NCBI RefSeq assembly: GCF_055900595.2
Contig: NZ_CM148325.1
DNA length: 64,000 bases
Reading direction: 5' to 3' (one strand)
A program made the translations under genes and the position numbers. Under the pieces are notes generated by a model that had not been told where the DNA came from, searched no databases, and worked only from the letters and a program-made list of their open reading frames with translations. This document shows, one piece after another, positions 4,660 to 54,319 of this stretch (its first letter is position 1; each line of letters opens with the position of its first letter).

Positions 4660-4694
4660 AAGGCCAGTCTCTTATGAGGCTGGCCTTTTTCTTT
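4660..4694 (+). terminator. rho-independent terminator downstream of rpoS
   Basis: GC stem GGCCAG...CTGGCC followed by T-run (ggccagtctcttatgaggctggccttttt). Confidence 0.7.
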
Positions 4695-27253: not shown

Positions 27254-29835
<2,582 letters not shown>

Positions 29836-34186: not shown

Positions 34187-34204
34187 ACGTGTTGCATTTG
34201 GGCG

Positions 34205-34295
34205 CAGTGCCGGATGCGGCGTGAACGCCTTATCCGGCCTACACATGCGCTTCCCGTAGGTCGGATAAGACGCGCCAGCGTCGCATCCGACATTT
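34205..34295. repeat. BIME (pair of REP elements) between hypF and norW
   Basis: gccggatgcggcgtgaacgccttatccggcctaca ... gtaggtcggataagacgcgccagcgtcgcatccgaca. Confidence 0.8.
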
Positions 34296-34312
34296 TGGGC
34301 ACACTAGCCCGC

Positions 34313-35446
34313 CTACATCGGCAAGGTTTTCAACAATCCAAACGCCTCTTTCATCCGATCCTCACTGACTACAAAGGCGCGAAGCTGGTCGGCATCGTCA
34401 ACGCCGCGCGCCACCATTCCCTGGCTTTCGGTACAAATCTGCCAGCGCAAATCCCGACGCTGGGTTTCGCCTGCCAGATGCAGCGGTAATTCCGGCGTTT
34501 TGATTTTCACCAGCATCGCCGGGAGTTTCAGCGGCGTGTTATTGCCGAGAAGATTTTTTGCCAGCACCATCGCGCTAAGTTGAATCGGCTGGAGGAACGG
34601 CAATACCTGACCGTTAATTTCCGCGCAATCGCCCAGCGCATAAATATCGGCATTACTGGTTTGCAGATAACTATCGACGCAAACGCCGCGATTAATCGTC
34701 AGCCCTGCACGTCGTGCCAGGGCGGTTTCCGGGCGCAGTCCGGTGGCGGCAATTACCGCATCCACTTCGATGCTGCGCTGGCGGTCCAGCGTTGCCAGAA
34801 TGCCAGAATCCGTTTTTTCCAGCCCCTGCAACTGAGATTTCAACAGCAGATGAACGCCCATCTCCGTCAACCGATGCTGTAAGCGACTGCTTACTTCCGG
34901 TGGCATTAACGACGCCAGAATACTGGCAGCGTTGTCGATTAGCGTGACCGCTTTGCCTGCCCGACAAAAATCCATCGCCAGTTCGCTACCAATCAAACCA
35001 CCGCCTACAATCAACACCCGTCGGGCATCCCTCAGTTGTGTTTCACAGGCGCGATACTCTTGCTGACTATTTAACGTCAGCATTAACTCACGCCCAGGCA
35101 CCGGCGGGACAAAGGCGTTGGCACCGGTTGCCAGCACTAGCTTGTCGTATTGCCACTGATTATTCTGGCTTTTCACCACATGGGCTTCGGCATCGATATC
35201 CGTCACCCAGGTGTGCGGAAACAGGCGCAGATTAAACTGCTCGGCAAATTCACCCGCCGTCTGGCGGGTAAGGTCGTCGGCACGTTGCCCCTGACTGATC
35301 ACATGGCTAAGATCAGGTTTGTTGTACTCATCCATGCTGTCGGCGGCAATCAGGGTCAATGGAATACCGGTATCCTGTTTACGAATATTTTTCACCAGTT
35401 GGCGGGCGGCGAAGCCTGAACCAATGATCACAATGCCGTTGCTCAT
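34313..35446 (-). CDS. norW: NADH:flavorubredoxin reductase NorW
   Basis: 377 aa; FAD/NAD GxGxxG motifs. Confidence 0.93.
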
Positions 35447-36882
35447 TTTGCCTCCGATGCCAGTTCGTCAAAGACGTCTTTGCCGAGAGAGCATTCCGGG
35501 CACAGGAAGTTATCCGGGACTTCACTCCACGGCGTTCCTGGCGCAACGTCCTGCATTGGCTCGCCTTTTGCCGGATCGTAAATCCACTGGCAGACACTGC
35601 ACTGCATCCGTGGGCCGAGGTCAGCCGTCGTGGTGGCACAGGTTTCTTCTTTAACCACCGTATTCACCGTGCTCTGTGGCAGCGGCGAAAGCGCCCACTG
35701 ACGGGCAATTTCACGACCGTGTTCACGGCATAACTCCAGCGCGTCCTGGTCCGGTCGCCATTTGGCTTTCAGGCTAAGCGACATTTCGAAACCTGCATCC
35801 TGCAGGCGTGTGGAAAGACGATCCACCGCACCGCCGCTCCAGCCGTGAGAGCCGAAAGCACTGGCGCGTTTGTTACGGAAGCGTAATCCGGTCATCTCCT
35901 CCACCAGCCCGGCGATTTTCGGCATCATCACGTTATTCATCGTCGACGTGCCGACCAGCACGCCTTTTGAGCGGAAGACATTGGTCAGGATTTCGTTTTT
36001 ATCGCTTCGGGCAACGTTGAAAATTTTCACCGCCACGCGTGGGTCGGTTTCCGCAATACCCTGGGCGATAGCATCGGCCATCATGCGGGTATTATTCGAC
36101 ATGGTGTCGTAGAAAATGGTGATTCTGTCTTCCTGATAATCCGCCGCCCATTTCAGGTACAGCTCGACAATTTGCGTCGGGTTATCGCGCCATACCACGC
36201 CGTGAGAGGTCGCTATCATATCGACCGGCAAGTTAAAGCCCAGGATCTCGGTGATTTTCGGCGTTACCAGGCGGCTGAACGGTGTCAGGATATTGGCGTA
36301 GTAACGCTGACACTGCTCGAAAAGCTCGGTCTGATCCACTTCATCGTTGAAGAGATGCTCGTCGCAGTAGTGCTGACCGAAAGCATCGTTACTGAACAGC
36401 ACCGCGTCGCCCGTCAGGTAAGTCATCATGCTGTCCGGCCAGTGCAGCATTGGCGTTTCGACAAAAATGAGTTGTTTGCCGTTGCCGATATCCAGCGTGT
36501 CGCCGGTTTTCACCACGTTGAAATTCCACTCCGGATGATGGTGATGACCATTTATTGAGTCGATAGCGTTGGCAGTACAATAGATCGGCGTATCGGGAAT
36601 TTGCGCCATCAGTTCGGTCAGCGCCCCGGCGTGGTCCTCTTCAGCATGGTTAATCACGATGTAATCGATATCCGCCAGATCGATTTCATTACGCAGGTTC
36701 TGCACAAATTCGCGGCTGAATTTATGGTCGACGGTGTCGATCAGTACGTTTTTTTCTTCGCGGATGAGGTAGCTGTTGTAACTGCTGCCGCGCAGCGTTT
36801 TATATTCTGTACCGTGAAAATCACGCACTTCCCAGTCACGTTGACCAACCCAATGAATGTTATTTTTCACCACAATAGACAT
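35443..36882 (-). CDS. norV: anaerobic nitric oxide reductase flavorubredoxin NorV
   Basis: 479 aa; metallo-beta-lactamase + flavodoxin + C-terminal rubredoxin CxxC...CxxC. Confidence 0.94.
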
Positions 36883-36928
36883 AGCAACCTCAATTTATTC
36901 AGCGTGTTCTAAAAAGATGTCTTGCTAA

Positions 36929-36946
36929 TTGCAGATTGCGTGCCAG
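36929..36946 (-). promoter_or_regulatory. sigma54 promoter of norVW
   Basis: Minus-strand TGGCACGCAATCTGCAA (TGGCAC-N5-CTGCA), ~45 nt upstream of norV start. Confidence 0.7.
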
Positions 36947-37000
36947 TTTTTTATCTAATTGTTTTTAATCTATAAATTAATTTATGCTCATTAATGAGTA

Positions 37001-37056
37001 GTCAAAATGACTATCAATAAAATGGTCGATATGACAATATCTATAGTCAAATTGAC
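37001..37056. promoter_or_regulatory. three NorR binding sites (GT-N7-AC)
   Basis: GTCAAAATGAC (37001-37011), GTCGATATGAC (37025-37035), GTCAAATTGAC (37046-37056) in norR-norV divergent region. Confidence 0.8.
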
Positions 37057-37068
37057 AGTGAGGCAAAG

Positions 37069-38583
37069 ATGAGTTTTTCCGTTGATGTGCTGGCGAATAT
37101 CGCCATCGAATTGCAGCGTGGGATTGGTCATCAGGATCGTTTTCAGCGCCTGATCACCACGCTGCGTCAGGTGCTGGAGTGCGATGCGTCTGCGTTGCTA
37201 CGTTACGACTCGCGGCAGTTTATTCCGCTTGCCATCGACGGGCTGGCGAAGGATGTACTCGGTAGACGCTTTGCGCTGGAAGGTCATCCACGGCTGGAAG
37301 CGATTGCCCGCGCCGGGGACGTGGTGCGTTTTCCCGCAGACAGCGAATTGCCCGATCCTTATGACGGTTTGATTCCCGGGCAGGAGAGTCTGAAGGTTCA
37401 CGCCTGCGTTGGTCTGCCGTTATTTGCCGGACAAAACCTGATCGGTGCATTGACACTCGACGGGATGCAGCCCGATCAGTTCGATGTTTTCAGCGACGAA
37501 GAGTTACGGCTGATTGCCGCGCTGGCGGCGGGAGCGTTAAGCAATGCGTTGCTGATTGAACAGCTGGAAAGTCAGAATATGCTGCCGGGCGATGCCGCGC
37601 CGTTTGAAGCGCTGAAAGAGACGCAGATGATCGGCCTGTCGCCAGGCATGACGCAATTGAAAAAAGAGATTGAGATTGTGGCGGCGTCCGATCTCAACGT
37701 CCTAATCAGTGGTGAGACGGGAACGGGTAAGGAGCTGGTGGCGAAAGCGATTCATGAAGCCTCGCCACGGGCGGTGAATCCGTTAGTCTATCTCAACTGT
37801 GCCGCACTGCCGGAAAGTGTGGCGGAAAGTGAGTTGTTTGGGCACGTGAAAGGGGCGTTTACTGGCGCTATCAGTAACCGCAGTGGGAAGTTTGAAATGG
37901 CGGATAACGGCACGCTGTTTCTGGATGAGATCGGCGAGTTGTCGTTGGCATTGCAGGCCAAGCTGCTGCGGGTGTTGCAGTATGGCGATATTCAGCGCGT
38001 TGGCGATGACCGCAGTTTGCGGGTCGATGTGCGCGTGCTGGCGGCGACTAACCGCGACTTGCGCGAAGAGGTGCTGGCAGGGCGATTTCGTGCTGACTTG
38101 TTTCATCGCCTGAGTGTGTTTCCGCTTTCGGTGCCGCCGCTGCGTGAGCGGGGTGATGACGTCATTCTGCTGGCGGGGTATTACTGCGAACAGTGCCGCC
38201 TGCGGTTGGGGCTTTCCCGCGTGGTGTTAAGTTCCGGGGCGCGGAATTTATTGCAACATTATAGTTTCCCGGGGAACGTGCGCGAACTGGAACATGCTAT
38301 TCATCGGGCGGTGGTGCTGGCGAGAGCGACCCGCAGCGGCGATGAAGTGATTCTCGAGGCGCAACATTTTGCTTTTCCTGAGGTGACGTTGCCGCCGCCA
38401 GAAGCGGCGGCGGTGCCTATTGTTAAGCAAAACCTGCGTGAAGCGACAGAAGCGTTCCAGCGTGAAACTATTCGCCAGGCGCTGGCACAAAATCATCACA
38501 ACTGGGCTGCCAGCGCACGGATGCTGGAAACCGACGTCGCCAACCTGCATCGGCTGGCGAAACGTCTGGGGCTGAAGGATTAA
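37069..38583 (+). CDS. norR: nitric oxide-responsive sigma54 activator NorR
   Basis: 504 aa; GAF + AAA+ ([14 protein letters not shown]) + HTH. Confidence 0.94.
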
Positions 38584-50711: not shown

Positions 50712-50804
50712 GGTGAGGTGGCCGAGAGGCTGAAGGCGCTCCCCTGCTAAGGGAGTATGCGGTCAAAAGCTGCATCCGGGGTTCGAATCCCCGCCTCACC
50801 GCCA
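50712..50804 (+). tRNA. serV: tRNA-Ser (anticodon GCU)
   Basis: 93 nt with long variable arm, anticodon loop CU-GCU-AA, 3' CCA encoded. Confidence 0.93.
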
Positions 50805-50807
50805 TTT

Positions 50808-50884
50808 GCATCCGTAGCTCAGCTGGATAGAGTACTCGGCTACGAACCGAGCGGTCGGAGGTTCGAATCCTCCCGGATGCACCA
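50808..50884 (+). tRNA. argV: tRNA-Arg (anticodon ACG), copy 1
   Basis: 77 nt GCATCCGTAGCTCAGCTGGATAGAGTACTCGGCTACGAACCGAG...CACCA; 3 nt after serV. Confidence 0.93.
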
Positions 50885-50947
50885 TATTCTACGAAATCTT
50901 CAGCAATGAAGGTGTCGAAGAGGTGGCGGTACTAACCGCAAGCACCA

Positions 50948-51019
50948 GGGAGGATAACGTTGCTTTAGCAACGGCCCGAAGGGCGAGCCGTAAGGCGAGT
51001 AATCCTCCCGGATGCACCA
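50948..51019 (+). other. tRNA-like structured spacer element ending in a copy of the tRNA-Arg 3' end
   Basis: 72 nt: stem GGGAGGA...TCCTCCC, internal hairpins, terminal aatcctcccggatgcacca identical to tRNA-Arg 3' 19 nt. Confidence 0.45.
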
Positions 51020-51083
51020 TCTCTTACTTGATACGGCTTTAGTAGCGGTATCAAAAAATCTGCAGTAAAGTAAGTTTCCCGAT

Positions 51084-51160
51084 GCATCCGTAGCTCAGCT
51101 GGATAGAGTACTCGGCTACGAACCGAGCGGTCGGAGGTTCGAATCCTCCCGGATGCACCA
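51084..51160 (+). tRNA. argY: tRNA-Arg (anticodon ACG), copy 2
   Basis: 77 nt, identical to copy 1. Confidence 0.92.
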
Positions 51161-51262
51161 TATTCTCCGTAATCATCAGTGATGATGGTTAAGATGGATT
51201 TTCTTATTTGATATGGCTTTAGTAGCGGTATCAATATCAGCAGTAAAATAAGTTTTCCCGAT

Positions 51263-51339
51263 GCATCCGTAGCTCAGCTGGATAGAGTACTCGGCTACGA
51301 ACCGAGCGGTCGGAGGTTCGAATCCTCCCGGATGCACCA
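51263..51339 (+). tRNA. argZ: tRNA-Arg (anticodon ACG), copy 3
   Basis: 77 nt, identical to copy 1. Confidence 0.92.
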
Positions 51340-54175: not shown

Positions 54176-54250
54176 AAGAAAAAGGCCACTCGTGAGTGGC
54201 CAAAATTTCATCTCTGAATTCAGGGATGATGATAACAAATGCGCGTCTTT
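54176..54250 (-). ncRNA. micA: small regulatory RNA MicA (SraD)
   Basis: Minus strand reads GAAAGACGCGCATTTGTTATCATCATCCCTGAATTCAGAGATGAAATTTTGGCCACTCACGAGTGGCCTTTTT; between gshA and luxS, divergent from luxS. Confidence 0.85.
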
Positions 54251-54319
54251 CATATACTCAGACTCGCCTGGGAAGAAAGAGTTCAGAAAATTTTTAAAAA
54301 AATTACCGGAGGTGGCTAA

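Follow-up and report, generated by a model that had tools for sequence, protein, structure and literature searches.

Does the short spacer between norV and norR in this DNA hold a complete nitric-oxide (NO) switch of the kind known from Escherichia coli K-12, or has the switch been altered? The window, that is, the whole stretch of DNA that we analysed (64,000 nucleotides of contig NZ_CM148325.1), came with an initial annotation made from its letters alone, which called positions 36929 to 37056 a canonical norV control region with three tandem NorR sites and a sigma54 promoter. Alignment with K-12, the oligonucleotides of a published NorR study (PMC2831303) and the flanking norR and norVW genes all agree with that call. 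We put a probability of about 0.95 on this being the canonical E. coli norR-norVW divergent control region, present here as a rare but ordinary allele, and no observation speaks against it.

Organization of the norR-norVW locus

The norR-norV spacer is 186 bp long (36883-37068), with norVW on the minus strand on one side and norR on the plus strand on the other. In the NorR-regulated operon norV is the first gene (35443-36882, minus strand; a full-length flavorubredoxin NO reductase of 479 amino acids) and norW the second (34313-35446, minus strand; an NADH:flavorubredoxin reductase of 377 amino acids), and the divergent norR (37069-38583, plus strand) encodes an NO-sensing sigma54 activator of 504 amino acids. 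We assigned norV and norR by their identity to K-12 and their domains, and norW by its open reading frame, its Pfam matches and the annotation of collinear genomes; in the closest, collinear genomes RefSeq annotates the flanking genes as norR and norV-norW. The proteins encoded by the flanking genes are 98-99% identical to those of K-12, with 475 of 479 residues of NorV (no gaps) and 493 of 504 residues of NorR unchanged.

All three proteins are full length with every expected domain. Pfam matched GAF, Sigma54_activat and AAA_lid_14 on NorR, metallo-beta-lactamase-like, flavodoxin and rubredoxin domains on NorV, and Pyr_redox_2 and Rbx_binding on NorW. For the NorR C-terminus, Pfam gave no helix-turn-helix model above threshold; the last 50 residues, where a DNA-binding region is expected, are highly conserved across 81 sequences. 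NorR shows no difference from K-12 over residues 1-176, a stretch that takes in most of the GAF sensor domain (Pfam 22-154), and both the GAFTGA loop and the Walker A motif GETGTGKE are unbroken. Ten of the 11 NorR substitutions relative to K-12 also occur among other Enterobacterales NorR proteins; the S316 and S482 of the window, for instance, are the most frequent choice there. F372Y, in the AAA+ lid, is a conservative, lineage-specific change, and phenylalanine stands at this position in all 80 others of the 81 Enterobacterales sequences. A 204-bp deletion in norV has been described in many O157 isolates (PMC4667661), and the norV of the window is free of this O157-type deletion. Judged from the sequence, the NorR-NorVW defence against NO is complete and intact in this strain, in contrast to O157 lineages whose norV is deleted. 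The genes rpoN, ihfA and ihfB are located outside the 64-kb window.

NorR enhancer sites

A pattern search, comparison with K-12 and published site-specific oligonucleotides placed three NorR sites in the spacer: site 1, promoter-proximal (GTCAAAATGAC, 37001-37011, Site1 oligonucleotides), site 2 (GTCGATATGAC, 37025-37035, Site2 oligonucleotides) and site 3, nearest norR (GTCAAATTGAC, 37046-37056, Site3 oligonucleotides). Each is a GTC-N5-GAC repeat with an A/T-rich centre, and from start to start they lie 24 and 21 bp apart. Relative to the norR ATG, the sites occupy the 13-68 bp upstream, leaving 12 bp between the end of site 3 and the start codon. All three are exactly as the initial annotation quoted them, and all three are intact and identical to K-12.

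The mutagenic oligonucleotides of Tucker et al. 2010 identify these three 11-mers as NorR sites 1, 2 and 3 (PMC2831303). When we reverted the GG/CC mutations of these oligonucleotides to GT/AC, exactly the three sites of the window were recovered, and the 21-bp site 1 oligonucleotide probe from the same study was found unaltered in the window. None of the three sites is dispensable in K-12: norV activation in vivo, stimulation of ATPase activity and open-complex formation each require every one of them (PMC2831303). Genomic SELEX in K-12 placed NorR at the norR-norV spacer only (PMC8249747).

The sites had been described by the loose consensus GT-N7-AC, and here the initial annotation was right about the sites, but the consensus taken by itself is not discriminating: GT-N7-AC has 213 matches in the window. 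We dropped it as a criterion because clusters arise by chance, with triple clusters appearing in 292 of 300 shuffles. The stricter GTC-N5-GAC has 21 matches in the 64-kb window against 11.8 expected, and this is the only place within the window where three of them fall inside 60 bp. Such a strict triple cluster was seen in none of 300 whole-window shuffles and in none of 20,000 shuffles of the spacer. The significance of the cluster rests on the stricter GTC-N5-GAC palindrome, its A/T-rich centre and the fixed spacing.

A fourth GTC-N5-GAC is found inside norV at 36835-36845 (GTCAACGTGAC; GTCACGTTGAC on the plus strand), in codons 12-15, about +75 to +85 from the start. All Escherichia sequences have it unchanged, and a published 362-bp footprinting fragment has its end within it (PMC2831303). 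We found this match unsupported as a fourth NorR site: only some third of the related loci in other genera have it, its codons GGT CAA CGT GAC spell the conserved residues G-Q-R-D, and nothing beyond the choice of the GGT and GAC codons is needed in addition. Coding constraint suffices to explain GTCAACGTGAC.

The sigma54 promoter and the norV leader

On the minus strand, reading towards norV, a sigma54 -24/-12 promoter lies at 36945-36930 (TGGCACGCAATCTGCA; TGGCAC-GCAAT-CTGCA) and carries both the -24 (GG) and the -12 (GC) elements. The promoter pattern has a single match in 64 kb, where 0.03 would be expected. The claim that this minus-strand TGGCAC-N5-CTGCA promoter is intact holds, as its sequence is as quoted and the same as in K-12. 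As to the extent of the control region, 37056 is the exact end of the outermost NorR site, but 36929 runs one base beyond the promoter.

Counting from a -12 C at 36931 gives a +1 position of 36919, and we infer from this that norV transcription starts at about 36919 (+/- 1-2). The predicted norV 5′ leader (36883-36919, minus strand) would then be about 37 nt long; it includes a GAGG Shine-Dalgarno sequence and is identical to that of K-12. With this putative start, the NorR sites would cover -82 to -137, and the guanines that the sites carry on the norV-sense strand would span -137 (37056) to -84 (37003). These predicted positions coincide with the published range of NorR protection, which is -137 to -84 (PMC2831303).

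A simple scan of 36700-37250 gave no sigma70-like norR promoter on the plus strand; it returned one weak minus-strand match, TTGTCA-16-GATAGT, which is composed of NorR sites. An Rfam scan of the whole window placed no RNA family within the norR-norV spacer.

Comparison with K-12 and conservation across Enterobacterales

Taking the norR-norV spacer of strain BW25113 as the K-12 reference, we obtained the alignment that the initial annotation had named as the check on its reading. It is gap-free with 180 of 186 bases identical; the leader, the ribosome-binding site, the promoter and the NorR sites with the distances between them are unchanged. The two regions have the same flanking genes, orientation and 186-bp length, the same three 11-bp sites and the same -24/-12 promoter, and they differ at six single bases. 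Five of these differences (36957, 36968, 36978, 36981 and 36988) fall in the A+T-rich IHF region and one (37019) in the spacer between site 1 and site 2. The K-12 norR-norVW control region, with its sites 1-3, IHF and the sigma54 promoter norVp, was reportedly described by Tucker et al. 2004. With every known functional element identical to K-12, the judgement that the region is known biology of low novelty is borne out.

We then compared the spacer with 5,426 complete E. coli genomes. It was matched in 5,425 of them, always flanked by annotated norV and norR. The 49 bp spanning sites 2 and 3 were identical in 5,033 of 5,417 matching records, a 30-mer containing site 1 matched 4,791 of the 5,426 genomes, and the 57 bp around the promoter were identical in 3,900 of 5,410 records, with one checked variant differing in the N5 of the promoter. 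The exact allele of the window is rare, being found in eight of the 5,426 genomes, and these are 100% identical to it across 6 kb. Among eight Escherichia sequences, including E. albertii and E. whittamii, the NorR sites, TGGCAC and CTGCA are invariant, and variation is limited to the spacers, the promoter N5 and the A+T-rich stretch.

To look beyond Escherichia, we scanned species-representative genomes for NorR, which yielded 80 loci from Escherichia, Salmonella, Citrobacter, Klebsiella, Enterobacter, Kluyvera, Kosakonia and others. The comparison set of 79 consists of the 78 loci with enough upstream sequence and the window itself. Three GTC-N5-GAC sites with 21/24-bp spacing are present in 76 of the 79 loci, placed relative to the norR ATG as they are in the window. 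A TGGCA(C/T)-N5-NTG promoter element is present in all 79, and its distance from site 1 is 64-67 bp in 78. The conserved columns are the three NorR sites, a block just 5′ of the -24 element, the -24 element itself, part of the leader and the ribosome-binding site; the remaining spacer columns diverge across Enterobacterales. The other Enterobacterales loci differ from the window in the centres of their sites, of which GTCATTTTGAC and GTCATATTGAC are common forms, and in their -12 regions: 42 of the 79 loci (L039, L046, L052, L072, L074 and others) have TTGAT, which is without the GC dinucleotide, whereas Escherichia, Citrobacter and Salmonella have CTGCA. The near-fixed 21/24-bp spacing and the 64-67 bp distance fit the published model in which three dimers build a hexamer, and are unsurprising.

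One of the loci, L003, lies on a short contig (contig 30) of the metagenome-assembled genome HRGM_Genome_0066, labelled Citrobacter sp., and combines a NorR 99% identical to that of the window with an Escherichia-type spacer. The same metagenome-assembled genome also holds a Citrobacter-type norR (L012), and the two norR types suggest E. coli contamination of the bin.

Proposed mechanism

The mechanism proposed for this locus is taken from the K-12 literature, from which we infer binding, looping, the NO response and autoregulation in this strain. Three NorR dimers would fill the three GTC-N5-GAC sites, and DNA binding would promote assembly of the NorR hexamer; in the published system, this assembly is driven by enhancer DNA and not by the signal (PMC2831303). 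Binding of NO to the non-haem iron in NorR's GAF domain would then free the AAA+ ATPase domain from repression. A bend in the A+T-rich stretch, assisted by IHF, would allow the hexamer to meet the closed complex of sigma54-RNA polymerase at TGGCAC-N5-CTGCA, and ATP hydrolysis would open the promoter for norVW transcription, so that flavorubredoxin and its reductase could remove NO. Bound NorR probably dampens norR expression too: as site 3 ends so close to the norR ATG (12 bp), NorR occupancy should also affect norR.

Activator sites clustered upstream, a -24/-12 promoter and a bend between the two make up a general logic that is also found in, for example, NifA-nifH and NtrC-glnAp2. NorR is, like other bacterial enhancer-binding proteins that act with sigma54, an AAA+ protein with a GAFTGA loop (PMC2831303). 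Unlike the other systems, it has three dimer sites that are all essential, and its signal is NO at the GAF-domain iron. Taken at the level of its DNA, the norVW NO switch of the window is intact and probably functional. The control of norVW by NorR is already known biology, and the locus is of little import beyond annotation.

The A+T-rich stretch and alternative readings

Between the promoter and the enhancer, at 36946-37000, lies a region of 84% A+T that corresponds to the reported IHF bending region. IHF binds between the transcription start and the NorR sites (PMC2831303), and a "second IHF site" has been mentioned for the K-12 norV promoter, pNorV (PMC11334186). By consensus and conservation, we found a candidate IHF core, AAACAATTAGATA, on the minus strand at 36952-36964, with two mismatches to WATCAANNNNTTR. 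The two mismatches are found in the window and in K-12 alike, and the difference from K-12 at 36957 falls within the N4 part of the core. The candidate sits in the conserved block directly upstream of TGGCAC, and 27 of the 79 related loci carry a perfect WATCARNNNNTTR whose start lies 18-19 bp upstream of TGGCA; many Enterobacterales loci match the IHF consensus perfectly at a place where Escherichia deviates from it by two bases. These matches point to 36952-36964 as a putative IHF site.

Two further features of this stretch involve bases that differ from K-12. An additional IHF-like core, AATCTATAAATTA (36967-36979, one mismatch), is created by the window's bases at 36968 and 36978, and the equivalent of 36967-36979 in K-12 has no match to the IHF consensus with two or fewer mismatches. 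A 12-nt direct repeat (GTTTTTTATCTA / GTTTTTAATCTA, 15-bp spacing, 36946-36972) is nearer perfect in the window than in K-12 because of the bases at 36957 and 36968. We also observed a perfect 12-bp palindrome, CTCATTAATGAG, at 36987-36998, 2 bp away from NorR site 1, where K-12 has CCCATTAATGAG; the window's base is common to most of the other Escherichia examined, and the palindrome is unconserved outside the genus.

These features bear on the possibility that the switch is intact but quantitatively retuned, such that the single-base differences in the A+T-rich region, together with F372Y in NorR, shift the basal level, the NO sensitivity or the maximal output. All five differences are located in the interval from site 1 to the -24 element, where two of them make the IHF-like core AATCTATAAATTA particular to the window and two sharpen the direct repeat, the allele is rare (8/5,426 genomes), and removal of the second IHF site has been reported to alter the behaviour of pNorV in biosensors (PMC11334186). 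However, at most of the positions in question the window shares its base with E. albertii, E. whittamii and Escherichia sp. E1V33, and since its bases are mostly common to other Escherichia, the allele looks like an older state rather than a new adaptation. The A+T-rich stretch also varies freely, both in Escherichia and across genera, except for the block beside the -24 element; the distance from enhancer to promoter is the same as in K-12; and matches to the IHF consensus are poor predictors of binding. Any functional effect of the differences is speculative, and we regard retuning as unlikely. It is similarly doubtful that the rare allele gives the norV promoter a basal level or NO threshold measurably different from that of K-12, though if it did, the allele would be a natural analogue of the engineered pNorV biosensor variants.

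It could also be argued that the main role of the three sites is that of an operator through which NorR represses its own gene, and not that of a norV enhancer. The position of the sites just upstream of the norR ATG is consistent with such a role, as are published statements that NorR controls norVW as well as the divergent gene that encodes it (PMC8249747; PMC11334186). Yet norV activation in K-12 depends on every one of the sites (PMC2831303), conservation extends from the sites to the sigma54 promoter and to the distance that separates it from the enhancer, and the roles of enhancer and operator are compatible with each other, so that we consider a mainly operator function very improbable. 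That the motifs are functionless chance matches in an A+T-rich spacer, as the abundance of loose GT-N7-AC matches and their triples in shuffled sequence might suggest, is refuted by the absence of strict triple clusters from all shuffles, the low expectation for the promoter and the preservation of the elements, position for position, in 79 loci from many genera while the surrounding spacer diverges.

Other observations in the window

Several features elsewhere in the window emerged from comparison with the closest genome, the near-identical strain Z0117EC0005. The gene ascF (28687-29835, minus strand), encoding a PTS cellobiose/arbutin/salicin IIBC component, specifies 382 amino acids in the window and 485 in Z0117EC0005. 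The difference is a 309-bp in-frame internal deletion that removes approximately residues 247-346 of the membrane domain, and the transporter is probably inactive as a result. In the serV-arg tRNA cluster (50712-51339, plus strand) there are three copies of tRNA-Arg(ACG), compared with four in Z0117EC0005, the shortfall amounting to one repeat unit of about 141 bp. ARAGORN also predicted a minus-strand tRNA-Arg(TCG) at 50828-50899, which overlaps a plus-strand gene and looks spurious. Near rpoS, Z0117EC0005 has gained about 709 bp by insertion of an IS200/IS605 tnpA element; this insertion is absent from the window (at about 4688-4690).

Next to norW, the hypF-norW spacer (34187-34312) contains palindromic repeats of the REP/BIME type (GCCGGATGCGGCG...CTTATCCGGCCTAC and a partner), and these repeats are probably the reason why a 6-kb query returned about 33 matching places per E. 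coli genome. Finally, the small RNA MicA was identified at 54180-54251 on the minus strand (Rfam, 83.9 bits), where it adjoins luxS as expected.
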